Source of the DNA: a virus
Reading direction: 5' to 3' (one strand)
Length of the DNA stretch: 64,000 nt
Virus record (IMG/VR): IMGVR_UViG_3300037504_000213
Coordinates: 1 to 64,000 of that record
Each line of letters opens with the position of its first letter. The stretch's first letter is position 1. Positions 9,129 to 63,593 of this stretch are shown piece by piece. The notes under the pieces were generated by a model. The model saw nothing but the letters and a program-made list of their open reading frames with translations, had not been told where the DNA came from and made no database searches. The translations under genes and the position numbers were made by a program.

Positions 9129-9472
9129 GATGCCACCACGTGTGTTATTCTGACTTCCAGTCCATCCCACAGGTGATCTCCTGGCCCTTGTGTCCCAGGA
9201 GATGTAATTTCAACAAAGAAGGATGCAGATGATGCTGCTGTTTTTGAGTTTGGATTCATGATCATACCGTTTTTAGATTCTCCGTCGTCGTAAGCTCTCC
9301 ACGTAGCGTAATCTGATTCCGAAAGAGCACCAAACGTTAGAGTCAGTGCGGTGTAATAGCCCTTAACACGACCGCCAGAATGCCTTCTGCCAAGATTAAC
9401 TGGCTCGTCATACACAACGGATGTTGGCTGCACTGGTGACGCCCCGCCTATTTCAAATATAGCTTCTGTCAT
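9125..9472 (-). CDS. Distal tail protein-like
   Basis: Small gene immediately after the TMP. Confidence 0.45.
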   Translation of the reverse strand: MTEAIFEIGGASPVQPTSVVYDEPVNLGRRHSGGRVKGYYTALTLTFGALSESDYATWRAYDDGESKNGMIMNPNSKTAASSASFFVEITSPGTQGPGDHLWDGLEVRITHVVAS

Positions 9473-12400
9473 CTTATACCCAAGCCTCCTCTACCGCCAG
9501 CGCCACTTGGGGTGCTAACCATTGATGGCAGCACCTCATCAACATATACCTCTCTCGCTTGCTCTTTAACAACCTCGCCCTCAAGCTCTATAACATTGTT
9601 TATTCTAGTCTTGGCTTTCATGTACCACGGTGCCGTTGTTTGTGCGCTTGATTGAGACATGGCTGTTGACGGCGAACGTGCTGGAGGCGCAACACCACCA
9701 CCAAACACGCCAGAGCCAAACCCAGGCGACCGCGTGTTGGTCATTCTTCTGTTGCCACCAGTTATTGTCATGCCCATTCCAGTAGCCATGTTTGCTAATG
9801 TGGAGTATCTTTGCTGAAGCATGGTTTGCATCATTATAGTTGTCTTATTAATTTCTCCAGCAACCGCAGCCCTTTCCAAGCCGTATTGATCAAGAAGTTG
9901 TTGGATATAGAGGTTGTGCTGGTTTTTCATTGTGGTTTCAACGTCATCCCACTTATCAAGCTCAGCCTGTATGAGTTTGTTTTTGTTGTCCTCAGCTTTT
10001 TCAATAGACTTCTGGTATTTGGAGGCAATGTCCTCAAGCGCCTTGTTGTAATCGGCAAGTGTGTCTTGTTTAGATTGATTGAATTTCCTTAAGGCATCTG
10101 CACGAGCCTGATCGTATACTCTGAGTTGATCTGTTACAGCATCCCTGAAGTCTTGTTGCGCGTCCTGGTTTGCCCTCTTTTGGTCAAGATATGCGTCTTC
10201 TATAGCACGCTTTGTTTCAACTCTCAGTTCTTCTAATGACGCAGCCTGCTCTGTTGCCCTTGCCTCAGCAGCACCTTCTCTGGCAAGCATCTCCGCTTCG
10301 TTTGCTCTGTCAAGTGCGTCTTGCAATGCCAACGCATCTCGCTCTCGTATTGCGTCATCCCTGTCTTTCGCATAATCGCGCCATATGTCACGAAGCTCTT
10401 TTTGAAGATCATTGTTGATGTCACGAATGCGCTCTGACGAACGTAGCTCAATGTCCTCCTCTTTTCTTACCCTGTCTGTCTCAATATCCTCAAGCTCTCT
10501 TGCCAAATCCTGCGCGTTATCACGGCGTTTTCTTCGTAGGTCTATGCCAAGTTCTCCAACACCCGCGGAGACACCAGATAACGAAATGTTGTTTAATGCT
10601 GCTTCGACGTCTCCAATTTGTCTAATAGTATCCAGCTTTATCTCGTTGACACGCCTGCCATAGTCCTTGGCAAGCTCACCCATCTTTTCTTGATAAGTGT
10701 CAAGTGCTGCTATCTCGTCCTCAAGTTTTTTGCTATCGAGTTTTTCTATTTCTGTGTTGTAGTCGTCTATGATTTTTTCGATGTTGCCTGATATTTCTTC
10801 CTGAGCATCGCCAATTTCCTTGGCAAGTATTTCCATTTTGCTTGAAAGGGCTTCAGAAAACGCCTTCTGTTGATTTATTGCGGCTGTTTCTTTTTGAGCA
10901 GCGGCCTTGGCTTGTTCTGCTGCTTCCTCTGACTGCTTCCAGAGGTTATATGCCTGCTCAATGTTTTGATATTCTCGTTCGGTTACTTGGTTAAGGCCCG
11001 CCATGCCAGCAAAACCTTGAAGACCAAACTGAGACTCTGTACCCCTAGCTCTCAACACCTCTTTCCTGAACGCAAGTTCTGCTTCCAGCGCCTTGCGTCT
11101 CTCGTCTGTTAGGTTTTTGTTCTTCTCAAGTTCGGTTTCAATAATCTTTACACGTTTTTCTGCGGCATTTACTTGCTCTTTTGTTAGAGCGGCATCCGCT
11201 TCTCCTGGTTGATAGAACTCAAGCTCATTGCCAAGTGCAAACCTCGCCCGCTTGATTTCTTCAATAGTCGTTCTGTCAATACCAAGACTAGAAAGAAGCT
11301 GCTCAAATGGGTCAAGTTCAATCAAGCCAAGTTCCTTCATGGCGTTAAGTTCGCCGTAAATGCCCTCAAGCTCTTCTTGCAACTTGGCGAGTTCTTGCTG
11401 CTTGGCGGTTAATTCGTCAAATACATTGCCAATATTTAAAACGCCCTCGTCTGTTTGCTCTACCAAAACCTTACCAGCCCGAAGCGCCTCGTTAAGTGCA
11501 AGTTGGCTTTTCTCATTCTCTGTAAGCTGGCGGCCAATCTTGGCCTCCATATCGGCTATGGCTTCTCTGTTGATCAAGCCCTGACCAGCAATGTTGTCTA
11601 GCCTTTGCGTTGAACCTGTGATAATACCATCTATAAGGTCTTCGAATTGTTTGCCATATTCAATACCTTGGGCACCAGCGGTTACAAGCGCGGTTTTGAT
11701 TAAGTCTGGCAGCGCTTCGCCCAAATTGCCAGACATGTCACTCATCAGCGCCTTGGTGGCCTTGCCAACAAGTTCTGTCTCATCTATAAGTCCTCCAGCT
11801 GCATCCTTTATGTCATCCAGAAGCCTGACTGGGTTGTCTACACCACGTTGGGCTGCTAGGTTCAAAAAAGCCTGTTCGGAACGTTGAAGCTGTGCAAACC
11901 CTTGGCCAGCTTCTATGGTTGACTCTTTCCATTCTTTGTGGCCTTCTGCAACATTAACAAGAGCTTCGCGCAACGTCCCAAGAACACCAAGAACACCAGT
12001 CACAGCAAACGACAGCTTTCCCAAGCGTTCCATCCACGAGTCTGACCCATCCCTTACGTTGTCTATGGCATTCTTGGCAACCCTAGTGGCTTTGGCAAGA
12101 TCATATGTGCCCTTTACCATTTCTGGCAACGCCTTGTTGTGCCCCTGTCTGCCCAAAAACCCAATGAGGGTTCTCATAGTGTCGCCTGCATCTTGCCTTG
12201 CCTTATTGGCTCTTTCTTCTGTTCTTGCAAGTTCAACGTTGCGCTGTGCAGCCTCGACACTCGCCTTCGCCCTGTTGTATGTGAAATCCTCAAGTTTCTT
12301 TTCTGCCCACAGTCTTAATCTTACTATAATGTTCGCTTCTTTTTCGGATTCAATTGTTTTTTTGTTTACACTCAGGAATGCTTCTTGTGACGCATTTCTG

Positions 12401-13947
12401 GCTGCCTGTCGTTTTCGCATAGCGTCGTCTAATTTGGATTGCTCCTCATCTAGTTTCTTTTTTGCTTTTGCTACTTTTATAGACTCTTCCATGCCAAAAG
12501 CGACGCGGAGTTCCATCTCCTCTTGTTCTGTTGCTGTTTTAATAAGTTCTTGCCGTGCGGCGTTAGTGAGACCAGTTTTAATACCGAGTTCTTCCTGCCT
12601 GTTTGCTACAAGCTGATCTGCTTCAGCAACAGCGCGTTGGTAATTCAGCAGCGCGTCTAGCTGTTTTGTTGTGAGCTGTCTGCCCTTCACGAGTCCATCA
12701 ATAGCTTGAATTTGTTCTTCAAGCCTCTGCTTTCCGACTTTCCTAACTTCATTTATATCGTACTCGCCGTTGATATAATTTGATATTGCAGTCTGTGCAT
12801 CGCGATACATTGAAACAAGGCCAGCTGTAGAAGCAACAATTTCACTAGCAATTACATTTCCTATATTCGATGCGGCTTCTGATATATTTTGAACCTGCTG
12901 TTCTCCGATAATAGCTGATGCTATTTTTGGAGCAACAGAACTAGTAACAAAATTAGCTATATCACTAAATGCGCCCTTATATATCTTGGCGGTGTTTTTA
13001 ATTACATCTACTCCCAGGCCAAGTGCGGTTGGCGTAATGGTACCAACTGCTTCGCCTAGTGCCCCGCCAGTTTGCATATCTTGCAATCTTCTAAGCCTGA
13101 GTTCCGTTAATCGTTCTTCTTCTCTTGCAAGGCCAAATTCAGCACCACGGGCGCGTTCTTGTGCTTTTTGTCCCTGATAGGCTCTGTAGGTTCTGCCAGC
13201 GCCCATTAACGCGCCCATTGCAAGACCAGCACCACCAGCGATAGGGGCAATGCCGCCAGCAGCGGCAAAGGCACCAGTCGCAAAGCCTGCGGCAGATATT
13301 GCTGGCGTAGCAGTGGCAGCAGCGACCATTATTCTTCTGCGTTTTTCAAAGCCCTCTGCAAGTGCATCTGTGTTCTCTTCAAGGCCAAAAAGAAGCTGAT
13401 CAAACCTTTCAAGCATAACAGCGTTGACGACAGATTCGTTAAACGCAGACCACACGTCAGCGCGCCTTATCAGAAGGTCAATTTGTTTTTCAATAGCATT
13501 TGAGCCTCCCTTTATCATTTGTATTTCTTTTCGTAGTTCTAGTTCTCGCTCTTTTGCGGCAGAACGTTGGGCTTGACGCTGCGTTTTGCGCTCATGCTCG
13601 GCCTTCCTGTTAATTTCCCTTTGTTTTTCGGTTAGTCTTGTTTCCTCGGCAGTTAACTTGACACGCTTCGTGACCTCTTTAGATCGCTCCTCACCAGCTT
13701 TTGATCTTACGGTTCTGAGCATTTGCTCTGTGAGCTTTTTCTCTTCGTCTGTAAGCTGCTGGATGCCACGCTGCATTTGTCTCAACATTGGTTCAGCTTC
13801 GTGCTGGAATGCCTTAAAGAACGCCTCAACACTGTTGATTGACGTTCTGGCCTCGCTCTTGATCTGATCGATTTCAACGCTTATTCGATTAAGCGAGTTG
13901 CTTACATCTTCAAGTTGTCTCGCTACATCACGCGGCGTATCTGCCAT
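9469..13947 (-). CDS. Tape measure protein
   Basis: 1492 aa, helical/coiled-coil, with hydrophobic Ala/Gly segments; canonical position. Confidence 0.85.
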   Translation of the reverse strand: MADTPRDVARQLEDVSNSLNRISVEIDQIKSEARTSINSVEAFFKAFQHEAEPMLRQMQRGIQQLTDEEKKLTEQMLRTVRSKAGEERSKEVTKRVKLTAEETRLTEKQREINRKAEHERKTQRQAQRSAAKERELELRKEIQMIKGGSNAIEKQIDLLIRRADVWSAFNESVVNAVMLERFDQLLFGLEENTDALAEGFEKRRRIMVAAATATPAISAAGFATGAFAAAGGIAPIAGGAGLAMGALMGAGRTYRAYQGQKAQERARGAEFGLAREEERLTELRLRRLQDMQTGGALGEAVGTITPTALGLGVDVIKNTAKIYKGAFSDIANFVTSSVAPKIASAIIGEQQVQNISEAASNIGNVIASEIVASTAGLVSMYRDAQTAISNYINGEYDINEVRKVGKQRLEEQIQAIDGLVKGRQLTTKQLDALLNYQRAVAEADQLVANRQEELGIKTGLTNAARQELIKTATEQEEMELRVAFGMEESIKVAKAKKKLDEEQSKLDDAMRKRQAARNASQEAFLSVNKKTIESEKEANIIVRLRLWAEKKLEDFTYNRAKASVEAAQRNVELARTEERANKARQDAGDTMRTLIGFLGRQGHNKALPEMVKGTYDLAKATRVAKNAIDNVRDGSDSWMERLGKLSFAVTGVLGVLGTLREALVNVAEGHKEWKESTIEAGQGFAQLQRSEQAFLNLAAQRGVDNPVRLLDDIKDAAGGLIDETELVGKATKALMSDMSGNLGEALPDLIKTALVTAGAQGIEYGKQFEDLIDGIITGSTQRLDNIAGQGLINREAIADMEAKIGRQLTENEKSQLALNEALRAGKVLVEQTDEGVLNIGNVFDELTAKQQELAKLQEELEGIYGELNAMKELGLIELDPFEQLLSSLGIDRTTIEEIKRARFALGNELEFYQPGEADAALTKEQVNAAEKRVKIIETELEKNKNLTDERRKALEAELAFRKEVLRARGTESQFGLQGFAGMAGLNQVTEREYQNIEQAYNLWKQSEEAAEQAKAAAQKETAAINQQKAFSEALSSKMEILAKEIGDAQEEISGNIEKIIDDYNTEIEKLDSKKLEDEIAALDTYQEKMGELAKDYGRRVNEIKLDTIRQIGDVEAALNNISLSGVSAGVGELGIDLRRKRRDNAQDLARELEDIETDRVRKEEDIELRSSERIRDINNDLQKELRDIWRDYAKDRDDAIRERDALALQDALDRANEAEMLAREGAAEARATEQAASLEELRVETKRAIEDAYLDQKRANQDAQQDFRDAVTDQLRVYDQARADALRKFNQSKQDTLADYNKALEDIASKYQKSIEKAEDNKNKLIQAELDKWDDVETTMKNQHNLYIQQLLDQYGLERAAVAGEINKTTIMMQTMLQQRYSTLANMATGMGMTITGGNRRMTNTRSPGFGSGVFGGGVAPPARSPSTAMSQSSAQTTAPWYMKAKTRINNVIELEGEVVKEQAREVYVDEVLPSMVSTPSGAGGRGGLGIR

Positions 13948-38785: not shown

Positions 38786-39573
38786 CTATTTTCTCCGTCC
38801 ATTTTTTAAGGTCCGCTTCGTCAACAGTATCTTCGCTTAAAAGGTTTGTAAAAATCTTGTACAGTGCAGAAGAGCGTTTGCCTATATCATGACAGACATC
38901 ATCTTCACACACAATTTTTAGCACCACAACATTATTTTCTATGACGTAATAAGCCTTATCAGCACCCCAGGATTTTACTAACAACCTAAGGCAAAACGCA
39001 AGCGTTGTATTGACTGGACTGTCGCAGGCCAGAAAATAAACATTGCTAGAGTCTTTGTCCTGTTGCCCTTTCCCAGGCATCTATCTTTTCCCTCCACTTC
39101 CTCTCTGTCTTTGTCATCCTCTTTTGTTTGGCAATGGGCTTAGCTTTGCCATCAAACTGCCATGATCTTATTGTACCATACTTTGCCTCGCTTGGATATA
39201 CAAGCTCTACATTACCAATCAGTTCTAACAATGTTCCAATACAGGCATGAACACTTTGGCTAACCCCCTTCCCAAAACACATTAACTTAAGAGAGGAAAG
39301 CCAATAGGCTGCGCAACCCAAAACATTCATGTCGCAAAAAATGTTATCTGTTAGCAGTTGAATGCTCTTTCTGAGGTTTCGTTCAATGTAGGTATTAGCA
39401 AACTCGATTGGATCGTCCTTCATGTTAGATTGTATGTGAGACAGACTTTCGTCATTCATCTCAAAATATTTCGCTGGATAAAGAACACAATCCCTAATGG
39501 ACGCTAAAAAGGATGTTTGCCAAGGTTCAGACTTGTAGTAAACGACATCGTATTCTTTCATTTATCCTCCTTG

Positions 39574-39645
39574 AGGCCCAGGTGAGACTTGCACTCACAT
39601 GAAAACGCTTTGCAGGCGTATACCTTTCTATTCGGACACTGGGCC
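39574..39645 (-). tRNA. tRNA-Cys(GCA)
   Basis: Cloverleaf GGCCCAG/CTGGGCC, anticodon loop CTGCAAA, U discriminator; T-loop TGCAAGT. Confidence 0.75.
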
Positions 39646-39647
39646 TA

Positions 39648-39720
39648 AGCTCCGAGTGAGATTTGCACTCACGGCCTCCGCGTTACAAAGGCGGCGCTCT
39701 ACTAACTGAGCTATCGGAGC
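39648..39720 (-). tRNA. tRNA-Thr(TGT)
   Basis: GCTCCGA/TCGGAGC acceptor, TAGCTCAG D-arm, loop TTTGTAA; T-loop TGCAAAT. Confidence 0.8.
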
Positions 39721-40494
39721 GTTGTACTATTTAGCTACTTGGCCTCGACCAAGCTTCAATGGTCTTCTTCTTCTTTTCTACGCGATACCCCTTCGAGTCA
39801 GTGTAAAAAGCCCATTCTGCTCTGCCAGCCCCATTGCGCTTCCACTGGTAAAATATATAGTAAGCACCTGGAAAGTCATCAAACTGAAGAATGTATTCAT
39901 GGCATGGTGAGTTCCATCCATTTCCTGCAAGTTTGTTGTGATCTATGAACTTGACGTTGTCAATTTTGTTGTTATAACCCAAGTCTGCTATAAACTGCTC
40001 CCAACTCTTCCAACTTTTCAGGTTGCCAATACAAGGGCGATTCCTAAGATCGACATAATCTAAGGCTTCAATCGTGTCTGGTGCATTCACATTGTTTGGT
40101 GTACTCATGCCATTCTCCTTATTTGACAACTGTGGTTCAAGGCCAGTTATTTCCGCATTGTCCTTGCCTAATGTACTCATGTTTTTCTCCTTTAATAGTC
40201 CATTAAGTAATACTTATTATCACTTGACGATTTTACGTACTCGCCACCAACCCCAACATTCTTAAATCCACACCTCATCAGATCCCCAATATCTATGGGA
40301 CTGGATATGACATATCGATCAGGCTTAACCAGAAAATCATCACCTCCTAACATGTCTTCAAATTTTTTACGTGCGTCCTCCTCACTTTTTGCTGTTACAA
40401 GGGCTTGCCTAGTAGAGAAGCCACGCGGCCATTTAAATACCCACAGGTTGTCCTTTTCTGTTCTCATTATACCTCCTAACCTTAATTAAACCCA

Positions 40495-40567
40495 TGCTCG
40501 CGGCTGGACTCGAACCAGCAACCTGTCGGTTATGAGCCGAATGCTCTAACCATTGAGCTACGCGAGC
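40495..40567 (-). tRNA. tRNA with CAT anticodon (Ile2 or Met)
   Basis: Canonical cloverleaf, CGGCTCATAACCG, GTTCGAGT. Confidence 0.85.
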
Positions 40568-41297
40568 TTGTATATATTCTACCACTTGTTGTGTGGTGCC
40601 ACAAGGGCAAGAACACAAGCGAGACCAAGGCGGCCAAGCAGCGCCAATGCCCTCAAGTTGGCTAAGTAGACAGATCCCCGCATAACCTCATCTCCGTTAT
40701 CTTCGCTAATAGCTTCAATCTCTAAGACTTTTTGTCCACCAAGATCACTTGGAGCATAAGCTGCCCACCAACATCCGTGGTCATATTGCTTGCGCTCAAT
40801 AGTATAACCAAGACCCTTAAGGGTCTCAACGATAAGTTTTGCGTCAGGGGGTTTTTCTTCCACCGTTTCACTCCTCCTCGACTTCCAGCTTTGCCATCTT
40901 GATCGTCGGGGCACGAGCATCGTCCCATACCCACATGGTATTGTGGTGCAATGCACGTGTAAAAAGTTCATCGGCGGGTCCTGCATAGTAGGTAATATAA
41001 ATGTGAAATCCTATTCGGTGAAAGCTTCCCAAAACGGATATTCTAATACCGTTGGCTAAATGGTGTTCACCTCGGCAGTACCACAAATCATACTCACCAC
41101 GATCCTTTGTCCATTCAAGATCGACCGCATCCTCACCAAGTGGAAGCGCGCCAAGCGCAAGGTGCGCCAACTTGTCGAAGTGAGGAATAGGGTCGCCAGC
41201 GGTTTTCGCATTTTTAAGCTCATTCTTCATGGCACCGTAAACGTTCATTGTTTTAGTCCTCCTCGTCTTCCGCACGCCACAATTTAAAAAGACAAAG

Positions 41298-41370
41298 CAC
41301 CTGCTACAGGATTCGAACCTGTGACCAAGAGTTTAGAAGACTCCTGCTCTGTCCTCTGAGCTAAGCAGGC
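41298..41370 (-). tRNA. tRNA-Arg(TCT)
   Basis: Canonical cloverleaf, loop CTTCTAA, GTTCGAAT. Confidence 0.9.
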
Positions 41371-41421
41371 TTGTTGCCAACGGCAAGATCGCTTTATAGA
41401 CACGCAAGCTACGTTGGCAAA

Positions 41422-41493
41422 TCGGGCAGGGTAGAATCGAACTACCTTCAATTTCTTCATGAGAGAAATGCACCTCCATTGTGCTTCTGCCCG
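41422..41493 (-). tRNA. Atypical tRNA with CAT anticodon (Met-like)
   Basis: CGGGCAG/CTGCCCG acceptor, TTTCT-CTCATGA-AGAAA anticodon arm, GTTCGATT. Confidence 0.65.
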
Positions 41494-41496
41494 TAA

Positions 41497-41569
41497 TCTG
41501 GGTGATTGGACTTGAACCAACGACCTCCTCGACCCAAACGAGGCGCGCTACCATCTGCGCTACACCCAG
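41497..41569 (-). tRNA. tRNA-Pro(TGG)
   Basis: Canonical cloverleaf, CCTCG-TTTGGGT-CGAGG. Confidence 0.9.
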
Positions 41570-46428: not shown

Positions 46429-47961
46429 TCAATGTACATAGTTTCTCTCGCCTACAAAGTTAGAAATCAAACCTGGGACATTGGCATCAAACCCAACAAT
46501 GTCTATCATACCAGGATCGTTGGGATCGGCGATGCTGAACTCTGTCGCTGTGGTGGCAGCAACCAACAGCTTGGCATTGTGAACGCCTGATTGTTCGCGG
46601 TACATCCTGAGGGCATCAGCAGGCACGTACTTGTTGACATTGGTCTCGTTATCTGTGTAAATCACAAATGCGTCGTACAGCAAACCCTTTTCCATTGCCC
46701 AAACCATTGGCATGTCGCATGCCGTTGCGCCGAAATTGAGAGATCGTATCTCTGCGATTATCTCTCCAAGGCTCATTCTGTCATGCAGCTTTAAAGGAAC
46801 AATGTCTTTCGAGAAAGCTATAATATCCCAGTCATCCTCAATGCGCATTGTAATCATAGCCATTGCAGCACTGATTTCCCTGGGTGTAAGGCCACCCCAT
46901 GCGTTATCGAATGTCATGGAGCTTGACACGTCAAGTGCAATGCAAATGCGTTTTCCAGTTGGCTCCACGTTGTCAAACGCAAGGTAAAACATTTCATCAA
47001 GCGCAGATATAATGTGTCCTATTGGATCCCACGAGTTGCTGCCCCTAATGCCCTCTCCGTTGCTGTATGTAACCAACGCCGACAAAACTGTAATGGGGTG
47101 AATGCGTGACCTTATAACAGATGTTCTGTCTGTAAGCATTTTGGCAACACTTCGAACGTTGTCACGAGAATCGAAGTAACCTGATCGGGTGATAGTGCCA
47201 AGGTTTCGAACAATTTCCCAAAGACCCATGTTGGGCATAAGGGCTTCCCAGGCTTCTGAGAATTTCCACAGTTCTCCTGGTACAATTGAGCGAGGGAGGC
47301 CGTATTCTTCAATAATTGCTATGGCCCTGCGTGCATCGTTGGTATCTTTCAGTAGTTCGTACCCCACAGTAAGTTTTGTGTTTGGGTTTTCCTTGCCAAC
47401 GGTCCATCCAAACAGCCTGTCGTGCCATACGCTAGCTGGCTTGACGTGTGCCAGCCTGAGGACATCTCGGTGAGACATGCCACCGCGCTGTCCATACTTT
47501 ACGATTTGGTAGTCAACAGCATCCTTTGTGTTATACCACGCCGCAAAGGCTCGCCGTATCATTCTCCCCCATCCGCGCATATCGTTTATGAAGTTGGCTA
47601 TAGTCAAGAGGTGAGAACCTGTTCTGACTGTTTTGAGGAATGTGCTAACGAAGTCTTCGTGCGCACCAGTGGTTGACACTAGCGCAAGCGCAAATAACGC
47701 TGGATCGTTTGATGGTGCACGCCCGCTATCGCTAATGTCGCCGATTAGCTTAAGCGTTCGTTTGGGATTTTCTCGTGCACACTCAAGTACAACATCTGCA
47801 TTGTCTTCTGTGAGTTTGCTTGAGTTTGCATAATACGTCGAGGCACTTCCTATAATAAGAAAGCGTTCCAAACGTGTCCATTTGTCAACGACATATGACA
47901 TGCCGCCACCATTATTGTGTCTTAAGCCATCCTTATGTCTTTTGCTGTAGTTTCTATACAT
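46429..47961 (-). CDS. rsr: Ro60/Rsr TROVE-domain RNA-binding protein with vWA domain
   Basis: RLERFLIIGS..TYY, SGRAP.NDP.LFAL, GWGR, KYGQRGGMSHRDVLRLAH, RIHP, DVSSSM, TDNET; AGGAG SD before ATG at 47961. Confidence 0.93.
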   Translation of the reverse strand: MYRNYSKRHKDGLRHNNGGGMSYVVDKWTRLERFLIIGSASTYYANSSKLTEDNADVVLECARENPKRTLKLIGDISDSGRAPSNDPALFALALVSTTGAHEDFVSTFLKTVRTGSHLLTIANFINDMRGWGRMIRRAFAAWYNTKDAVDYQIVKYGQRGGMSHRDVLRLAHVKPASVWHDRLFGWTVGKENPNTKLTVGYELLKDTNDARRAIAIIEEYGLPRSIVPGELWKFSEAWEALMPNMGLWEIVRNLGTITRSGYFDSRDNVRSVAKMLTDRTSVIRSRIHPITVLSALVTYSNGEGIRGSNSWDPIGHIISALDEMFYLAFDNVEPTGKRICIALDVSSSMTFDNAWGGLTPREISAAMAMITMRIEDDWDIIAFSKDIVPLKLHDRMSLGEIIAEIRSLNFGATACDMPMVWAMEKGLLYDAFVIYTDNETNVNKYVPADALRMYREQSGVHNAKLLVAATTATEFSIADPNDPGMIDIVGFDANVPGLISNFVGERNYVH

Positions 47962-48018
47962 AGTTTCTCCTAACAAGCACGGGATGCCATTTGATTCTGG
48001 CATCCCGCTATGTGCTTT

Positions 48019-54379: not shown

Positions 54380-54408
54380 TTGATAGTATTTGCCTGGGAT
54401 GATATGAT
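54380..54408 (+). promoter_or_regulatory. Promoter of the replication module (divergent region)
   Basis: TTGATA-17-TATGAT with TGn. Confidence 0.55.
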
Positions 54409-54446: not shown

Positions 54447-55535
54447 ATGCAACAAAACGATTTTGAGTTTTTAACGAGTGATAAGGTTCGTCTTCGGATT
54501 GCCGTTATGGGGCCTACCAAGGCTGGAAAGTCTACCACAGCAATACGGCTTGCGACGCTAATTTGTTATTTACGTGGCATAGAGAAACCGAACATTATCG
54601 TCATCGACACGGAGTCTGGGAGGTCATTGATCAATAACGGTGTTCGGTTTGAGGACGACCCTCTTCCGATGCGCTTTAAGGTTATTGGTATGGACCCGCC
54701 GTATACGCCAGACCGTTACATTGCGGCCATGCAACATGCCGCAGAGTTGGAGCCAGACTTTGTTATCCTCGATCAGGCCAGCAATGAGTGGCAGGGGGAG
54801 GGCGGGTGTCTTCAGATGGAGGCCGAACTTGAGAGTCGTAGCGATTACAATCGAATGCGGGCCTGGGGCGTAGTCACAAAGAAGCACGACCGATTCATCA
54901 GCACCATTGAAAGTTACCCGTACGATCTTATGGTAAACATTCGAAGCAAGTCCAAGGTGGTTATTGAGGATGAGAGTGGTGGCAAGGCCAAGAGCAGGCA
55001 GATGGCCCTCGACGCGATTCAGCGTGACGACTTTGAGTTTAATCTCGACATTGTATTTCGTGGCTCTGAAAATGCAGAGTTTGTGGTTTGGAGTCGCTTT
55101 CCTACGCTGAACGACAAACTTTTCATAAAGCCTGGCATGGAAGTGGCAAAATTGATTGTTGCTGAAATGGATCGCATCAAGAAGGCTGAGGATACGATTA
55201 TCTCGCTTGATGATCTTGGTGACGTGCCAACATATAGCATTGAGGATATTAAGAAAGAAATTCAGGCCCACATCGACTCGGCAACGAAAAAGGGTTTTAG
55301 CGATGATGTGCCAGAAGCAGACAGCCCTGGTCGCCTGCGTGCTGCAACAGCTATTCAACAAGCTGTTGGCACCATTTCTGATGAGTTCTACAGCACAATG
55401 TTTGGAAAGGATGACTTTAATTCGCTTTCTCAGGCTGAGCTGGTTGCTGTAAGTAATTGGGTTAGCGAAATGGAAAACAATCTTGGCGAGACACAACTAA
55501 AGGTTGAGTTGTCAAGGTTTGACAATGCAAGCTGA
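54447..55535 (+). CDS. AAA_24-family P-loop ATPase (phage recombination/annealing)
   Basis: GPTKAGKST, IDTE, PPYTP..Y, ILDQ.S.EW.G.GG. Confidence 0.8.
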   Translation: MQQNDFEFLTSDKVRLRIAVMGPTKAGKSTTAIRLATLICYLRGIEKPNIIVIDTESGRSLINNGVRFEDDPLPMRFKVIGMDPPYTPDRYIAAMQHAAELEPDFVILDQASNEWQGEGGCLQMEAELESRSDYNRMRAWGVVTKKHDRFISTIESYPYDLMVNIRSKSKVVIEDESGGKAKSRQMALDAIQRDDFEFNLDIVFRGSENAEFVVWSRFPTLNDKLFIKPGMEVAKLIVAEMDRIKKAEDTIISLDDLGDVPTYSIEDIKKEIQAHIDSATKKGFSDDVPEADSPGRLRAATAIQQAVGTISDEFYSTMFGKDDFNSLSQAELVAVSNWVSEMENNLGETQLKVELSRFDNAS

Positions 55536-56871
55536 GAAGGTATGGCCTGCGTCGGTCGATGCAGAGGAGGCACTCTTGGGGTGCCTCCTCATCAACCCAG
55601 ATGATATTTGGTCTGTTGCAAACAAGATAACGCAAGAAGATTTCTTTTTGCGCAAGAACGGCAATATCTATGATGCCATGATGCACTTAGCTAGCAATGG
55701 GCATGGCATTGATAACATCACCGTTTCTGAGCAGCTGGACAAAAACGATCTGTTGAACAGTGATGTGCAGGCCCATATGGCGCATCTCCTTACCGTGGCA
55801 CCGTATGGCGCTAACATAGAAACGTACGCAGAGCAGGTTATCGAAACATCTGTTCGTAGGCGGCTGTTGGATGCATGTAACAAGGCTGCCAAGCTAGCCT
55901 TTGATGAAAAGACCCCGCTGTCTGATGTCATACCAAACATCACATCAAGGTTCTCAGAGGCGTCTGGTCACGGGGTTGGCGATGACATCCTGAGTGGTCA
56001 TGACCTCGCAACACTGCATAGTGAGCACGTAGAGGCCTTGCGACAGCTGGATGAACCCCCTGGGATAAAGACGGGCTACAGCAACCTTGACAAGTTAATT
56101 GTAGGCATCCAGCCAGGAGACTTCTTTGTGCTTGGCGCTGGCACAGGGCACGGCAAAACGCAGATGTCTATCAATATTGCGCTAAATGCCATATTGCAGG
56201 GTCACGGCATCATGGTTGTGTCTTTTGAGATGCGCCCAGAGCAAATGATGAATCGTGTGGCTGCACTCATGTCAGGTATTTCATCTCGGAAGTTCAAGTC
56301 TGGCGATCTCACTAACGACGAGATGTCAAGAGCTTACGGCGCTTGGGATAGCATAAGCAGGATGCCACTGTGGATTACGAGGCCTAGCATTGGCGGTAAG
56401 ACAATGTCAAACATCATTGCTAATGCCTCAAGGTTGCAGATGCAAGAAAAACTCGATCTTGTGATAATAGACTATCTCCAACAAGTTCAACCAGAGCGAG
56501 CAGGCAACAGAACACAAGAGGTTGGTAGAATAGCCGATGCTGCCAAGAACATGGCAATGGAGCTTGGGGTTGGTGTCCTGGCGCTATCTCAGTTGAATAG
56601 GCGCGGGCAACGGGATGATCGCCCTAGCCTGAATGACTTGAGGGAATCTGGCAACATGGAAAACAATGCGGATGGCGTGTGGCTGTTATTTAACCATGAT
56701 GCAGCGCACGGCCCTGATGCAGAGTACCCTGGTATAATAGAACTTGATGTTGCGAAAAACAGGGATGGGCCAACGGACACAATCAATTTGCATATCAACT
56801 ACATAAATGGTAAAATCACTGAAGTCAATCGCGTCAGTGATGATTATGGGAACAAGATACACTTGCCCTAG
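55525..56871 (+). CDS. dnaB: Replicative DNA helicase
   Basis: AEEALLG, GAGTGHGKT, SFEM, IIDYLQ, LSQLNR, P.LNDLRESG..E..AD, KNRDGPT. Confidence 0.95.
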   Translation: MQAEKVWPASVDAEEALLGCLLINPDDIWSVANKITQEDFFLRKNGNIYDAMMHLASNGHGIDNITVSEQLDKNDLLNSDVQAHMAHLLTVAPYGANIETYAEQVIETSVRRRLLDACNKAAKLAFDEKTPLSDVIPNITSRFSEASGHGVGDDILSGHDLATLHSEHVEALRQLDEPPGIKTGYSNLDKLIVGIQPGDFFVLGAGTGHGKTQMSINIALNAILQGHGIMVVSFEMRPEQMMNRVAALMSGISSRKFKSGDLTNDEMSRAYGAWDSISRMPLWITRPSIGGKTMSNIIANASRLQMQEKLDLVIIDYLQQVQPERAGNRTQEVGRIADAAKNMAMELGVGVLALSQLNRRGQRDDRPSLNDLRESGNMENNADGVWLLFNHDAAHGPDAEYPGIIELDVAKNRDGPTDTINLHINYINGKITEVNRVSDDYGNKIHLP

Positions 56872-56880
56872 GAGGTACAG

Positions 56881-57495
56881 ATGCCAGTGTCCACTACATG
56901 GGATGGCAAAAAGAAGCTCAAGAGCGGTTCCAAGACCGCAGACATTTTTATGACCAAGCATAAGCGTGGCCCTAAAAATGCTTATTGCATGGACTTGGAT
57001 TGTGTGATCTATGATTTTAAAAATAGGATTATCGCTGTTGTAGATCACAAGCACATAAAACGAAGGCACAATCTTACGTCTGGCGAGGTCACTGTATATG
57101 ACCAAATGCTTGAGATGGGTATCCCAGTGTTCATTGTTGCTACTAATGATGATGTGACGTCGCTGTCGGTATATCAGTATCTTGGTGCTCACCCAAGAAA
57201 AAGATGGCCAAGTTATAAGAAGCCGTCTTTTGACCTTGACGTCGTATTTGAGGATAGCGACTGGAATGATTACTGGAAATGGGAAATGGGGCTGCGGCGT
57301 TCTGTTGCTGTTGAACGTGGCGGTATTGGAGAAAATAATCATAACGCTCATATTAGCGAGCACGACGTTGATATGATACGATATTTATACGGTGACGGAG
57401 ATGACCTGACACAGCAGGATATTGCGGATTTGTTTGGCATCTCACGGCAGCAGGTTTCTAAAATCGTAAGGAAAGAGATGTGGAATCATGTCTAA
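56881..57495 (+). CDS. Putative PD-(D/E)XK-like domain plus C-terminal HTH
   Basis: D.D....D.K; TQQDIADLFGISRQQVSKI. Confidence 0.5.
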   Translation: MPVSTTWDGKKKLKSGSKTADIFMTKHKRGPKNAYCMDLDCVIYDFKNRIIAVVDHKHIKRRHNLTSGEVTVYDQMLEMGIPVFIVATNDDVTSLSVYQYLGAHPRKRWPSYKKPSFDLDVVFEDSDWNDYWKWEMGLRRSVAVERGGIGENNHNAHISEHDVDMIRYLYGDGDDLTQQDIADLFGISRQQVSKIVRKEMWNHV

Positions 57496-58345
57496 AAATA
57501 CGGTTCACCCGATAATGGCATGGGCATCTATAGCTTCGACTTACAATCGATTGCTCATGGCCATAAGGCAGTCCAAGCAAATCGACAGTGTTGATGTCGT
57601 GTGGATGCTGAAAGAGGCCGCCGTCTTGATCAGGTGTGCAGAGCAGATGTTTAAGAGAGGAAACAGTGATGAGTGATTATGTAGAGAGGGTGAGAGAGTT
57701 AAAGAAGCTGTCTGGTGAGTATCAAAAATACATGAAGCTGTGGATTAAGATGGCAAAGCTGGATGGCTACAAAGTGGTTGAACAGAAGAGTAACGGCGGC
57801 AAGCCATATTATCAGATAGCTAAAGGCGACGTCATGCTCTACGACTGTGGGGCTACACCAGAAGAGGCGTGGGAAAATGCATATTGGGATTACGACCTAC
57901 CAGATTACTTGAACTCAATATCTGATGTTTGGCCTATTCTTGTGAAGCTGCTTAAGGCTAACCTAGGTACATACAACGAACCACAGGCAGCGCAGCTTGA
58001 CGACAGCGGGTTCTCGTTTAGCGCGAGTCCGTTTGCTTGTGACGAGGTTAGGTCTAGCAGTTCAAACGAAGATGATGTTGCGTATGCAATATGCAAGGCT
58101 GCTGAGAAATGGTTGACTTAAACTTGTGGGCTAAGGTGCAAATTGATGGCGGGAAAGAGGCACTGTCGGCAATTGTAGATTTGCTGATGATCAACTACCC
58201 AGTGGTTAAAGAATATTTTAGAAAGTTGCCTGGAAGGGATGAGTACCGTGTCGTCTTACAAGTCAGGACAACCACACTGCCAGATGATGCCCCAGAAGAC
58301 ATTTTTAAGGCACTGGACTTCTTTGATCAAGGAACGGGAGGTAAC

Positions 58346-59078
58346 GATGAAAATCAATCTTCATAGTGATATTGTTGGTGCTATGTCATTGTTTAACGAT
58401 GCCCCAAGCAATACGCTTGGCCTGCTCCTAACAATGATGCAGAAGTCAAAGAATGGCCTCTGGACTGGATACAAGAAAGAGCTTTACAGCGCTATTGATA
58501 TGTCATATGGTAAACTGAACACGCGCTTGGAGTGGCTCAAGGAGCATGTTTGCATTGTTGAGGTCGAGTCTGTGTCCGACAAGCGCATGACATCGATGGT
58601 GATCACGGGAATCGTTGGTCTATCTGATGTTGCCTACCCGCTGTTGGGCGTGTGGCCAGAAAGCCTGGATATGATAGGTGTCCCCACGAGCTTCACTGGC
58701 ACGCTTGTTGGTGACACGATCCCAGTATATGATATGCTCAAAAGCTGCGCTGGCATTGGGCGTGACTGTTGTGATGAAGAGGACGTTGTCGAGGCTATGG
58801 CTGAAGCTATTGCGAAGATGTTGTTTAATGTTTCCCCTGGGTTGCTGTCTTTATCGAAGCGCAAGCAGCTTGAGCAATACGCCAATGTGCTTATAACCAA
58901 TAAGCCAGACGTGACACCAGAGGTGTTGCGTGGTTTTCCTGCGTGGTGGTATAAGCGTGGCAGCGGCAGCTGGTCGGACAGCAAAAGACCGCAGTTAGGA
59001 CATCTTCGCAATGAGCTTGGCGCTTATTTAGAGGATAAGGAAGAGACAAAAGAAGTGGAAGACGTCTTTGGACTCTGA
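58346..59078 (+). CDS. Putative replication initiator-like protein
   Basis: GGAGG SD; winged-helix-like N-terminus; between dnaB and the loader. Confidence 0.35.
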
Positions 59079-59122
59079 TTGTGCTACTTTGCGTTTTGTG
59101 ATATAATGATATAGGAGGAAAC

Positions 59123-59215
59123 ATGAAGGACATTTGGATACTTGAGTTCGTCACGAACGGCGGGCTTGTACAGGCCAAACGTAATGACGTGTGCAATACA
59201 CTTAGATCGCGATAG
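59123..59215 (+). CDS. 30-aa microprotein MKDIWILEFVTNGGLVQAKRNDVCNTLRSR
   Basis: AGGAGG SD, upstream TTGTGC-17-TATAAT; similar to the C-terminus of the next ORF. Confidence 0.55.
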   Translation: MKDIWILEFVTNGGLVQAKRNDVCNTLRSR

Positions 59216-59220
59216 CAAAA

Positions 59221-59529
59221 ATGGAGGTTGCAATGGATGGAGCCAAAGAATTATCCGAAAAGTTTGGTGTCGTTGTATTGGTAATTTTGGTGGTTTTGGC
59301 GGGGATTGCGGTTGTTTTGTTGTTTGTTGATGTGTTGGGTGATATTCTAAACGGCAACTTCTACGTTAGGTACAGAGTAGAAGACATAGACGACGGATAT
59401 ATTACACTTTCAGACAGACACCGCACTGTAACGTGCAGGGTTAACGACTGGGTGGTTGACTTTATCACGCATGGCGGCAAATTAGAAGCTATGCACAGCG
59501 ATGTATGCGGTACCTTGAGGGCGCAATAA
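59221..59529 (+). CDS. Small membrane protein
   Basis: One strong TM segment. Confidence 0.55.
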   Translation: MEVAMDGAKELSEKFGVVVLVILVVLAGIAVVLLFVDVLGDILNGNFYVRYRVEDIDDGYITLSDRHRTVTCRVNDWVVDFITHGGKLEAMHSDVCGTLRAQ

Positions 59530-60230
59530 TGACATGTGACCTTTGTAATGGCACTTCATACGTAACTGGCGAAGATGGTCGGCCAGCGCGCTGCCCAAAA
59601 TGCAATAAAGGGCCACGTCGCTCTGACATCATTCTCTCCAGGGCTGGTATACCGCCACGATTTGATAAGTCAATGCCCTTGGCAGATGCTTTGTCATCGC
59701 TGTCTACGTCTATTAACGAGCAGGCTCGTACAAATGTAGCCAAGTATGCCGAGTCCTTGACTGTTGTTCGCTCATCTGGACAGGAATTGCACTCCCTGGT
59801 GTTCTATGGCAAGCCAGGGAGTGGCAAGACCAGCCTTGCAACCACAGTGTTTAAGCAAATCATATGCAACGGCCTTGTTGACAGCGCCTTGTGGGTAAAT
59901 TCATCGGACCTACCAACCATGGTTCGTGCCACCTACGGCACATCTACATCTGAAGATGATGTCATCGATAAGTACAAAATGACTGACTTACTATTGCTTG
60001 ACGATTTCGGCAGGGGAAATATTACCAAGCACGCAGAGGATTTGACATATCGTGTCATGGACTATCGATATAGATGGGATTTGCCACTGATTGTTACGAC
60101 AAACGACGATCCCAGAGAGTTGGTTGAAAAGTTTGATATGGCCGTTGTGCAGCGTGTAGCAAGTACAGCGGCGTGGATAAGAATGGATGCACTTAAACGT
60201 GGCATTAAGCTAGAGGAGTGGGAGAAGTGA
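59505..60230 (+). CDS. DnaC/IstB-like helicase loader ATPase
   Basis: CxxC..CxxC, AGIPPRF, GKPGSGKT, LLLLDDFG, YRY...P.IVTTN. Confidence 0.85.
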   Translation: MRYLEGAIMTCDLCNGTSYVTGEDGRPARCPKCNKGPRRSDIILSRAGIPPRFDKSMPLADALSSLSTSINEQARTNVAKYAESLTVVRSSGQELHSLVFYGKPGSGKTSLATTVFKQIICNGLVDSALWVNSSDLPTMVRATYGTSTSEDDVIDKYKMTDLLLLDDFGRGNITKHAEDLTYRVMDYRYRWDLPLIVTTNDDPRELVEKFDMAVVQRVASTAAWIRMDALKRGIKLEEWEK

Positions 60231-60459
60231 CGAGGTTCTTTGTATTCTTGCTTGCCCTGTGCATTGCGGCAATAGGCGTTATCATGGTCATTAACGAGGT
60301 AGAGAGGCAGGGCTTGGTAATCATTGGCATTTCGTATACGGGTAGTGGCAAACTGCTGTTGTTTGAGATCGGTGGCCGCAAGGAAGCCTGTGTTATAACG
60401 GATGAGCAGATTGAGGCATTGCAAAATGGCGCTATGCTGTATGCCAGTATAGACAGGCC

Positions 60460-61005
60460 ATGCGAATGGGAGATACGGTAATGGCTGTTTTAGGAGAATC
60501 CGCAACGTCATATAATGGTGACGGGGCATTAATTATGGTCAAGCAGGCTAGTGGTGATAAAGGTTTCCAAGATCCAGGCAATATGTTATGTATAGATGCC
60601 ACCAATCGTCTGGTAGCTATGTATGAGACATGGCTATATGACAATGACATAGGATACAAATATATTAATTTCGATAGGCTTGGTGGTTTATTTAGATCGG
60701 TAACAATTCTTGCAAATGACGGTCATGGCTTTTTGGAACAAGAAACTGGATTTCATAGGTATGTGTCAATAAATCCATACGACTCGATGTCGCGCCGATG
60801 GACCGTGTTTGTTGGCGTAAGGGTCGTTAGATCAAATATTTCGTTTCTTGAATATCTTAATCTTGTAGATGAAGGGTTAAGCCCCTGTCGAAGCTATGAC
60901 ATTTACAGGGGTCGCATAACAAACGAGCGAGAAGGAATTAGCACCGACAAAGTTGAAGAATATTTTAACGGTAATTTAGGGCTAGTGAGGAGAAATAATG
61001 GCTGA
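60460..61005 (+). CDS. Truncated peptide-chain release factor 2-like protein (domains 2/4 only, no GGQ)
   Basis: MY..W, SVT, G.L..ETG.HR...NPYD...RR.T.F, RSY....RI...R.G.T......G.L. Confidence 0.75.
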   Translation: MRMGDTVMAVLGESATSYNGDGALIMVKQASGDKGFQDPGNMLCIDATNRLVAMYETWLYDNDIGYKYINFDRLGGLFRSVTILANDGHGFLEQETGFHRYVSINPYDSMSRRWTVFVGVRVVRSNISFLEYLNLVDEGLSPCRSYDIYRGRITNEREGISTDKVEEYFNGNLGLVRRNNG

Positions 61006-61274
61006 GACAGTAGACGCAACGACAGTAGTGTTTGGAATCCCTGTTGATGGAGAAACCCCAGTTAACGTTGAGGTATCTCCAAGTGGTGCCAGAATTGGCC
61101 CTATGCCTTGGATGTCTGGCGAGGGCATAGCATTAAACGGAGATAATGTGATTGCGAGGTTTGCAGCGCTCAAAGAGGCCCTTGCACACACAGAGAGGCT
61201 GTATATCGCAATGACAAGTGCCAGTGGGCTGGAAATCTAAAGTGTTACGGTACCTTACAAAATGTTGTAAGGTA

Positions 61275-61303
61275 TTGACATAGAACTAATTGCATGATAC
61301 AAT
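61275..61303 (+). promoter_or_regulatory. sigma70-like promoter, preceded by hairpin 61251-61274
   Basis: TTGACA-17-TACAAT with TGn; TACCTTACAA/TTGTAAGGTA. Confidence 0.7.
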
Positions 61304-61337
61304 AATGTTGTATAAAAGTAGAAAAGGAGATGAAATA

Positions 61338-61457
61338 ATGAGTCTTGGGTATTCTGGGGGTGGCGAGCGTGGCAGCCCCCGTCGTGGTGGCGACACTGGA
61401 TACCGCGAGAAAAAGTGGCCTCAACGCAACGGCGACACTGGATACCGCGAGAAATAA
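61338..61457 (+). CDS. 39-aa peptide with duplicated GDTGYREK motif
   Basis: AAGGAG SD, own promoter, 24-bp direct repeat. Confidence 0.55.
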   Translation: MSLGYSGGGERGSPRRGGDTGYREKKWPQRNGDTGYREK

Positions 61458-62678: not shown

Positions 62679-63593
62679 TTATCCCCACCACCTTGGATCG
62701 ACATCGTGCTGAACTTTCCTTGCAGCATCTATTGCTGAATGTGCCACCGCAACCTCTTCACTAGTATACTCCTTTTTTTCCCATTTGACAAGGCGTGCAA
62801 GCTGATTGGCGTTGCGGATGCCAACGACGACTTTTTGGAAGTTATCGTTGTTAACCACATGTTTAAACGCAACCGCCGCTGGATCGAGTCCAGCCCTGTC
62901 GCAGTTGAAGTGATAAATTTCAGCAGTTCGCTTAACGCTTGCTGGCACATCATGCCGAAACCTCCAGCCAACAGCGTCTGCTATGATTCCCTGTAAGAAC
63001 ACACTGCGTGCCCACAGGTTTTTGAGCTTTTTGGCAAAGGCAAACTCTGCCATCGTGCTCTCGTGCCTTCGGTCCAATATACTGTACGGAACTACAATAT
63101 TTTTGATTAGCGCCATGTCCGTATAGGCCCTATAGGCATCTTCCTTGTTGTATACGGTGGCGCCACCGCTCACAATATTTGCGCCTTGCAGAGCTTCATG
63201 TAGCTTGCCATCTATGCTGGCAGTGTAATTGTAGTTGTGGATGTGGAGGTGAACATAGGCGTTGCTGCCAAGAAGCTCTATGCTATTATTTGTCTGAGGT
63301 TTATAGTGATTTCTTGTGCTGTTGTTGTCGCTGTGGGCCACTTTAGTGACAACATGCCATTTTCTTTCATGGTCTGGCAGTAGTTTCCCTAACCACTGCT
63401 CTGCCTTGCCATATGTGGGCGCTGTGTCAAACCAGGAAACCCCAAGTTTGTCTGCAACCGCCACAATGTTAGTGGCCTCATCGAAATCCACACTACCCGC
63501 AGGGTAGGAAGAACCCCACCCTGCGGTACCAATAACAATTTTACTCATACTGTACCATTTCCCTATTGTTGAACTCGTATATCTGATGTGCAT
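62679..63593 (-). CDS. Aldo/keto reductase
   Basis: IGTAGWG, FDTAPTYGKAEQWLG, TK, ARSVFLQG, VVVG....QL. Confidence 0.85.
   Translation of the reverse strand: MHIRYTSSTIGKWYSMSKIVIGTAGWGSSYPAGSVDFDEATNIVAVADKLGVSWFDTAPTYGKAEQWLGKLLPDHERKWHVVTKVAHSDNNSTRNHYKPQTNNSIELLGSNAYVHLHIHNYNYTASIDGKLHEALQGANIVSGGATVYNKEDAYRAYTDMALIKNIVVPYSILDRRHESTMAEFAFAKKLKNLWARSVFLQGIIADAVGWRFRHDVPASVKRTAEIYHFNCDRAGLDPAAVAFKHVVNNDNFQKVVVGIRNANQLARLVKWEKKEYTSEEVAVAHSAIDAARKVQHDVDPRWWG

Follow-up and report, generated by a model that had tools for sequence, protein, structure and literature searches.

Introduction

Class I release factors are described as obligate two-function proteins, in which recognition of the stop codon is followed by cleavage of the peptide. 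PrfH (TIGR03072), a short release factor homologue, rescues damaged ribosomes. The RF2 residues that are taken here to read the codon or to touch the decoding centre are reportedly those defined by the RF2-ribosome structures of Weixlbaumer and Korostelev in 2008. PMC6881298 was used for this assignment as well.

The recognition and the catalytic motifs of RF2 have each been probed by mutation. RF2(GAQ) is inactive in release, replacement of SPF by SPT alone abolishes the termination activity of RF2, and the tryptophan of the switch loop stacks on A1492 during stop-codon decoding (PMC6881298). The plant plastid protein PrfB3 stabilises petB mRNA (PMC5897788, PMC3472500). In the full-text literature, with most subscription journals outside the scope of the search, no description was found of a bacterial-type release factor reduced to domains 2 and 4, whether in phages or elsewhere. 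Here we describe such a protein from a phage. It apparently belongs to a rare and undescribed group of short RF2 derivatives, called mini-RF2s in the following, of which it is an unusually diverged member.

Genomic Context of the Mini-RF2 Gene

The window, i.e., the whole stretch of DNA analysed, comprises 64 kb (64,000 nucleotides) of a 76,273-base viral contig from IMG/VR (IMGVR_UViG_3300037504_000213), which is estimated to be 65% complete. The contig is that of a tailed phage, with a terminase, a portal protein and six tRNAs. The stretch is present in one DNA run from a tidal-flat metagenome, which is probably its source, and no RNA run was listed with it. A close relative of the phage was found neither among GenBank phages nor in IMG/VR, and searches with its DnaC-like or DnaB proteins returned no relatives either; its terminase is only ~29% identical to the terminases of known phages. 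The genome is 92% coding, and TGA and TAA close 32 and 39, respectively, of the 86 ORFs in the window.

A block of + strand genes (54447-61240) has the mini-RF2 gene at its end and also encodes an AAA_24 protein, a DnaB-like helicase, an HTH protein and a DnaC-like loader. Membership of this block places the mini-RF2 in a replication (early/middle) module. The features around the gene are as follows.

54380-54408, + strand: promoter-like site, TG-extended, 10/12 by consensus match only, preceding the block 54447-61240
60218-60481, + strand: upstream ORF of 87 aa with an N-terminal hydrophobic helix and no family match, in a frame different from that of the mini-RF2 gene and translationally coupled to it
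60468-60473, + strand: Shine-Dalgarno-like GGGAGA, 7 nt before ATG 60481, read from the sequence
60481-61005, + strand: mini-RF2 gene, 174 aa from ATG 60481, with the TGA stop at 61003-61005
60998-61240, + strand: downstream ORF of 80 aa with no family match, its ATG overlapping the end of the mini-RF2 gene by 8 nt

An earlier note, made from the sequence of the window, had reported an ORF of 181 aa at 60460-61005. This ORF is present on the + strand, intact and closed by TGA, and independent gene calls recover it as proteins of 174 aa and 179 aa. It is the longest form of the gene; 60460 and 60466 are alternative in-frame starts, and ATG 60481, which shares bases with the TAA stop of the upstream ORF (TAATG), is the likelier start. 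An identical protein was obtained from two independent assemblies, thus the short architecture is not an assembly artefact. An RF2-style frameshift fusion with the upstream ORF was considered and rejected, since that ORF is membrane-like and bears no relation to domain 1 and since a CUU-UGA-C site is lacking. With an intact frame, a Shine-Dalgarno sequence, translational coupling on both sides and a place within the replication-gene block, the gene looks live from its sequence. Its GC3 is 0.346 (genome 0.460 +/- 0.069), the 4th lowest among the 86 ORFs, which could be a weak hint of foreign origin or of relaxed codon selection.

Several other features of the window deserve mention. Directly after the mini-RF2 operon, the region 61275-61457 (+) has a near-consensus promoter (TTGACA-17-TG-TACAAT) followed by AAGGAG and by a minigene of two codons (ATG-AAA-TAA). 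The stop of the minigene and the start of a 39-aa ORF share bases (TAATG), and this ORF contains an exact 24-bp repeat (GDTGYREK twice). It is curious to see a start-stop minigene adjoining a release factor derivative. The tRNA cluster occupies 39573-41569 (-) and consists of six genes, Cys, Thr, Met, Arg-TCT, Met and Pro, with no suppressor among them. A Ro60 homologue with TROVE and Ro60 vWA domains is encoded at 46429-48003 (-) (Pfam E 5e-59; PHROG RNA-binding protein), and an aldo/keto reductase family gene at 62679-63593 (-) (Pfam E 1.3e-22). Two large ORFs, of 1492 aa at 9469-13947 (-) and of 1209 aa at 5541-9170 (-), have no PHROG match at E <= 1e-5.

Relationship to RF2

Sequence comparison points to RF2, at a level well beyond chance. 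When the protein was searched against PDB sequences with phmmer, the best matches were RF2 chains only (E 1.1e-6), and among the NCBIfam families TIGR00020 (prfB) matched at E 1.1e-10 while prfA and prfH gave no match. The TIGR00020 score, 41.1 bits, is below the curated cut-off of 370. Comparing the PCRF and RF-1 families of Pfam had been put forward in the earlier note as a check: PCRF reaches 22.1 bits, slightly short of its cut-off of 24, and RF-1 (PF00472) gives no match. With a profile of 12 full-length RF2s as the hhalign reference, residues 14-117 align to RF2 126-224 (probability 97%, E 8e-11). The C-terminal 50 residues alone give a weak hhalign match (E 0.0014), collinear with RF2 320-356 and with RSY on RSY; domain 4 is also backed by HMMER alignments to other mini-RF2s (P0003, P0009, P0010, P0016 and others), each of which runs in a single stretch over residues ~45-175 of the window protein, and by the structural model.

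An AlphaFold2 model was built from an alignment with ten short homologues. It has a pLDDT of 77 and a pTM of 0.77; the two release-factor-like parts reach 84-95, and the domain 4 part 86-95. All of the best 50 Foldseek matches of the model in the PDB (each at E <= 0.001) are release factors of the RF1/RF2 type (50/50). In the VIA-align superposition, residues 13-174 of the model lie on residues 125-363 of E. coli RF2 (1gqe) with Z 17.4 and an rmsd of 3.5 A over 154 of 174 residues, domain 3 being skipped; a model that departs from RF2 domains 2 and 4, which the earlier note had named as evidence against its reading, was thus not what we obtained. The parts of the protein map to the window as follows.

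60520-60831, + strand: equivalent of RF2 domain 2, residues 14-117 of the 174-aa protein (hhalign, phmmer)
60772-60780, + strand: NPY at the position of the RF2 codon-recognition motif SPF (alignments)
60793-60810, + strand: RRWTVF at the position of RF2 RRHTSF, with His replaced by Trp, Ser by Val, and Thr kept
60829-60888, + strand: linker of ~20 residues (117-136), partly helical in the model, in place of the ~100-residue GGQ domain 3
60889-61002, + strand: equivalent of RF2 domain 4, opening with RSY (60889-60897) (hhalign, pLDDT, structural alignment to RF2 363)

The domain reading offered in the earlier note is borne out by these data, namely the match to domain 2 and that to domain 4, the missing domain 1, the replacement of domain 3 by a linker of ~20 aa, and NPY where RF2 has SPF. 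Just ~13 residues precede the RF2-like part, which aligns from RF2 125; the protein has no GGQ motif, and no PF00472 match was found on the 76-kb contig. Sequence and model together identify the protein as an RF2 derivative that consists of domains 2 and 4 only. Having no domain 3 and no GGQ, it cannot hydrolyse peptidyl-tRNA and so cannot be a release factor; having no domain 1, it cannot use the L11-stalk and RF3 contacts. PrfH was considered as an alternative identity and rejected because of the missing TIGR03072 match, the missing GGQ and a fold similarity of Z 9.8, as compared to 17.4 for RF2. In the ESM Atlas, BNR_4 look-alikes appeared at low recognition and were judged spurious. The BFVD search of viral folds gave no match at E <= 0.001; its rank 2 entry, A0A6J5T9T2, is a 164-aa 'PrfB' of an uncultured Caudovirales phage (probability 0.98, TM only 0.34) and may be another short release factor derivative.

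Other Proteins Reduced to Domains 2 and 4

A word-indexed homologue search with the window protein found only the protein itself and no close homologue, making it a singleton; a further search of this type was dominated by full-length RF2. When 1.84 billion representative proteins were searched exhaustively with HMMER, the matches comprised, besides full-length RF2s, proteins of 130-190 aa that align in one stretch over both halves. Altogether, about 15 other short proteins with domains 2 and 4 only were found among metagenomic proteins and IMG/VR phages. The GGQ-less metagenomic ones are P0003, P0009, P0010, P0014, P0016, P0017, P0021, P0022, P0030, P0035 and P0057, each of them rare (on 1-3 contigs). 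Members of the group have no domain 1, and their domain 2 is joined to domain 4 by a linker of 9-20 aa. GenBank phage records yielded full-length release factor genes only, and the sole single-piece match there (H62) is a full-length RF1. Three further distinct phage genomes in IMG/VR, unrelated to the window phage, carry a mini-RF2.

L006/L007/L008: one phage, 78,240 bases, complete with terminal repeats; the mini-RF2 gene adjoins a head-tail adaptor gene in L006
L009: complete phage genome of 104,614 bases
L025: phage genome of 42,557 bases, 92% complete

In the two complete genomes and L025, the only PF00472 match is one of 15.6 bits that falls inside the L025 mini-RF2 gene itself. The window phage and the two complete phages are ~90% coding under code 11 and use all three stops, and neither a suppressor tRNA nor a tmRNA was found in these three. 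Compared all against all, they have essentially no common gene except the mini-RF2, and its neighbourhoods differ as well (a replication block in the window phage, a head-tail adaptor in L006). A conserved partner gene is therefore rejected, as the phages compared share essentially only the mini-RF2 and its neighbours differ. Taken together, the missing GGQ domain, the standard code and the lack of common genes imply that these phages encode no partner for the mini-RF2 and that the gene has no link to stop-codon recoding.

Conservation was examined in an alignment of 13 other mini-RF2s, from which that of L025 was left out. Their mean pairwise identity is only 39%, yet conservation per column follows the pattern seen in full-length RF2 (Spearman 0.65, p 9e-19). 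In 24 columns, 12 or all 13 of the sequences share one residue; among these columns are those of the helix-alpha5 Glu, of GxHR, of SP and D in the SPF loop, and of RR-x-TSF, RSY and PY. The Ser-Pro of SPF is kept in all 13, whereas the window copy has NPY, and several of the other mini-RF2s retain the switch-loop Trp ahead of RSY. This RF2-like pattern with invariant decoding motifs indicates that selection would have continued to act on the decoding surface after the loss of domain 3. By their sequences, the other mini-RF2s look like true readers of UGA and UAA.

A quick maximum likelihood tree was calculated on 145 columns shared by mini-RF2s and full-length RF2s. The mini-RF2 branches are much longer than those of full-length RF2s. 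A grouping of eleven mini-RF2s has weak support (SH-aLRT 80; a long-branch warning applies), and P0057 and L006 sit with different full-length RF2s (SH-aLRT 87-88). The placement of these two suggests that the domain deletion probably occurred more than once, with long-branch effects elsewhere in the tree. The window protein has by far the longest terminal branch, 7.2 substitutions/site compared to a median of 0.24, and it is unplaced in this tree. At ~29% identity to the other mini-RF2s it is also the most diverged of the group. Such a branch fits a changed function or relaxed constraint, as far as can be judged from a tree.

The searches also turned up other partial and complete release factor genes. 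Full-length RF2 genes are present in the IMG/VR phage contigs L001, L002, L004, L023 and L029. L027 (1453-1650) and L030 (1435-1635) contain stand-alone ORFs of 65-66 aa with RF2 domain 4 only; that of L027 lies ~600 bases downstream of a full-length RF2-like gene (76-870), and that of L030 has no other release factor part within 1.5 kb. Among metagenomic proteins, P0031 (286 aa) has RF2 domains 1, 2 and 4 and is missing only the GGQ-bearing part of domain 3. P0007 (219 aa) is an RF2 without domain 1 that keeps GGQ, and it groups with the mini-RF2s in the tree. By their domain content, P0031 and P0007 may be intermediate forms. The mini-RF2s, full-length RF2s, domain-4-only ORFs and P0007 (the last from the metagenome protein search, not from a phage contig) suggest a broader, undescribed set of phage release factor fragments.

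Codon-Reading Residues in the Window Copy

The earlier note had stated that the protein keeps the stop-codon-reading core, which is correct in part. What stands is the fold together with residues of the loops (GxHR, P, D, RR, T, F and RSY); in full, the window copy keeps L, M-Y, E-x-G-x-H-R, V, P, D, R-R, T, F, V, R-S-Y and a C-terminal G, which comes to 17 of the 24 near-invariant positions of the other mini-RF2s. What does not stand is the set of residues that read the codon. In SPF, Ser is replaced by Asn and Phe by Tyr; Trp takes the place of the stacking His and Val that of the Ser in TSF, and PY in domain 4 is RG. The helix-alpha5 Glu is lost (Gly, Gln, Phe or Leu takes its place, depending on how an upstream insertion is aligned), and no aromatic residue occupies the position of the switch-loop Trp. 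Thus, in the codon-reading set (alpha5 Glu, SPF, and the His and Thr of RRHTSF) just the Thr is kept. Among the 55 columns that are at least 90% identical in full-length RF2s, the window copy keeps 28 and the other mini-RF2s keep 33-51.

Since these residues are lost and the change of SPF to SPT is by itself sufficient to kill termination, RF2-like codon reading by the window copy is doubtful. Relative to the other mini-RF2s, its codon specificity has probably been altered or lost, and the description in the earlier note is one that the others, by their motifs, fit better than the protein for which it was written.

Discussion

We tentatively favour the view that the window protein is a non-hydrolytic ligand that would still dock at the decoding centre, with its codon specificity altered or lost. 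Sequence and model make this a possible reading that falls short of an even chance. Docking in the A site would be the ancestral function minus catalysis and is, we infer, the most economical assumption. The Foldseek matches include solved complexes of hydrolysis-dead mutants, RF1(GAQ), GGS and GGD, and so release factors that cannot hydrolyse still occupy the A site. As proposed, the window protein would dock at the 30S decoding centre as a non-catalytic ligand and would there compete with RF2, RF1 and other A-site ligands, and this competition would pause or modulate translation in the early, replication phase of infection. For the canonical mini-RF2s, competitive occupation of UGA and UAA codons is predicted; for the window copy, the prediction is A-site binding with altered or no codon specificity. 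All three phages examined close many genes of their own with UGA or UAA, and a strong blocker of termination at these codons would hit phage genes too, which speaks against a simple global block of termination. A mini-RF2 must thus have an effect that is mild, timed or selective, if any. The roles that the earlier note had listed (A-site decoy, stalling, hibernation and titration) are all plausible for a protein of this sequence, and our results do not discriminate among them.

An alternative that we regard as unlikely, and as the best of the remainder, is that the protein acts away from the ribosome as a decoy. Its domain 2/4 surface would bind a host protein that recognises RF2, either of the ArfA/BrfA type or an RF2-sensing factor, and would titrate it or recruit a dead release factor to non-stop ribosomes. 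ArfA and BrfA add a beta-strand to the domain 2/4 sheet of RF2 and do not need SPF (PMC6881298), the ArfA-RF2 and BrfA-RF2 structures are among the top fold matches of the model, and a role that needs only the domain 2/4 scaffold is compatible with the lost codon-reading residues. However, the switch-loop Trp that both ArfA and BrfA engage is absent from the window copy, and a pure scaffold would not require the RR, T, F, P and D of the decoding loop, which are still conserved. The lack of a conserved partner gene among the three mini-RF2 phages compared also counts against a decoy.

Returning to docking at the decoding centre, the substitutions at the codon-reading positions could themselves be adaptive. 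The protein would then be a retuned, non-hydrolytic A-site clamp. It would recognise something other than UGA/UAA, be it a codon or a state of the ribosome, and would pause, protect or silence host ribosomes in early infection, as a viral, RF2-derived counterpart of hibernation or decoy factors like Balon. From the sequence, we think this elaboration quite unlikely.

A lower standing still is given to two further explanations, to which we assign equal and small probability. In the first, the RF2 fold would have been recruited as an RNA-binding protein off the ribosome, e.g., one that protects or regulates a phage transcript. PrfB3 sets the precedent, as it has lost both signature motifs and binds the petB 3' UTR (PMC5897788, PMC3472500), and the window copy is likewise without both and very diverged. 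Against this, no RNA target is evident, PrfB3 is a paralogue specific to a plant lineage and known for motif loss rather than domain deletion, and the decoding-loop residues retained in the window copy point to the ancestral binding site. In the second, the gene would be a drifting remnant of a captured prfB gene without current function. It has the longest branch in the tree, it has lost half of the positions invariant in RF2, it is a singleton and its GC3 is low. Yet it keeps an intact frame of 174 codons in a genome that is 92% coding, with a Shine-Dalgarno sequence and coupling on both sides, its fold is predicted with confidence, and the fold-critical and loop residues have been kept in a non-random manner (17/24 mini-invariant positions).

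Finally, phages are known to carry full-length RF2 genes, but the idea that the protein is one half of a split release factor with a separate GGQ domain, or a helper in stop-codon recoding, is barely credible and is largely refuted by the GGQ-domain, code, stop and tRNA results: PF00472 is absent from the window contig (65% complete) and from the two complete mini-RF2 phages and amounts in L025 to the 15.6-bit match in the mini-RF2 gene, and the three phages are ~90% coding under code 11 with all three stops and no suppressor tRNA.

A free-standing codon-reading module without the catalytic domain would be a natural separation-of-function variant, and several unrelated phages that use the standard code carry one. 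Such a module could inhibit termination by competition, park ribosomes, or serve as a decoy for rescue factors that bind RF2. The mini-RF2s may offer a handle on how phages manipulate termination and ribosome rescue, as well as tools for stalling ribosomes at stop codons. For such purposes the canonical members, in which SPF and RRHTSF are kept, make cleaner test objects. How far the scaffold can drift is illustrated by the window copy; it may have acquired a new specificity, and its function is more uncertain than that of its relatives.

Comparison With Known Systems

The likeness to Balon, a member of the aeRF1/Pelota family, is one of functional analogy only. Balon is a GGQ-less, release-factor-like protein that sits in the A site and decoding centre without catalysis (PMC10901736), as is proposed for the window protein. 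Its fold is unrelated (that of the archaeo-eukaryotic release factor family), and it is a cellular protein with three domains that works with EF-Tu.

PrfH and the window protein are both short relatives of class I release factors without domain 1. PrfH binds the A site; unlike the window protein, it keeps the GGQ domain.

The plant plastid protein PrfB3 (mtRF2b, AT3G57190) is likened to the window protein by description only. Both are derived from RF2 and have lost the SPF and GGQ signatures, and PrfB3 has a non-termination role (PMC5897788, PMC3472500). In contrast to the phage protein, it is eukaryotic and organellar, it binds the petB 3' UTR, and what has been described for it is loss of motifs, not excision of domains 1 and 3.

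RF2 itself (prfB, TIGR00020; 1GQE, 4V5E, 5MDW) shares with the window protein a homologous and superposable domain 2/4 superdomain, including GxHR, P and D in the SPF loop, RR-x-T-x-F and RSY. The window protein differs from it in having neither domain 1 nor domain 3 with GGQ, in NPY, in Trp for His, in the absence of the alpha5 Glu and the switch-loop Trp, and in scores below the cut-offs. Of the features by which membership in RF2 is defined, it has the domain 2/4 fold and none of the others.

The closest counterparts are the other mini-RF2s. The window protein has the same architecture, in which domain 2 is followed by a short linker and domain 4, without domain 1 and without GGQ. The others keep the alpha5 Glu, SP[FYH], RR[HY]TSF and PY in domain 4, and in many cases the switch-loop Trp as well, whereas the window copy has kept none of these.
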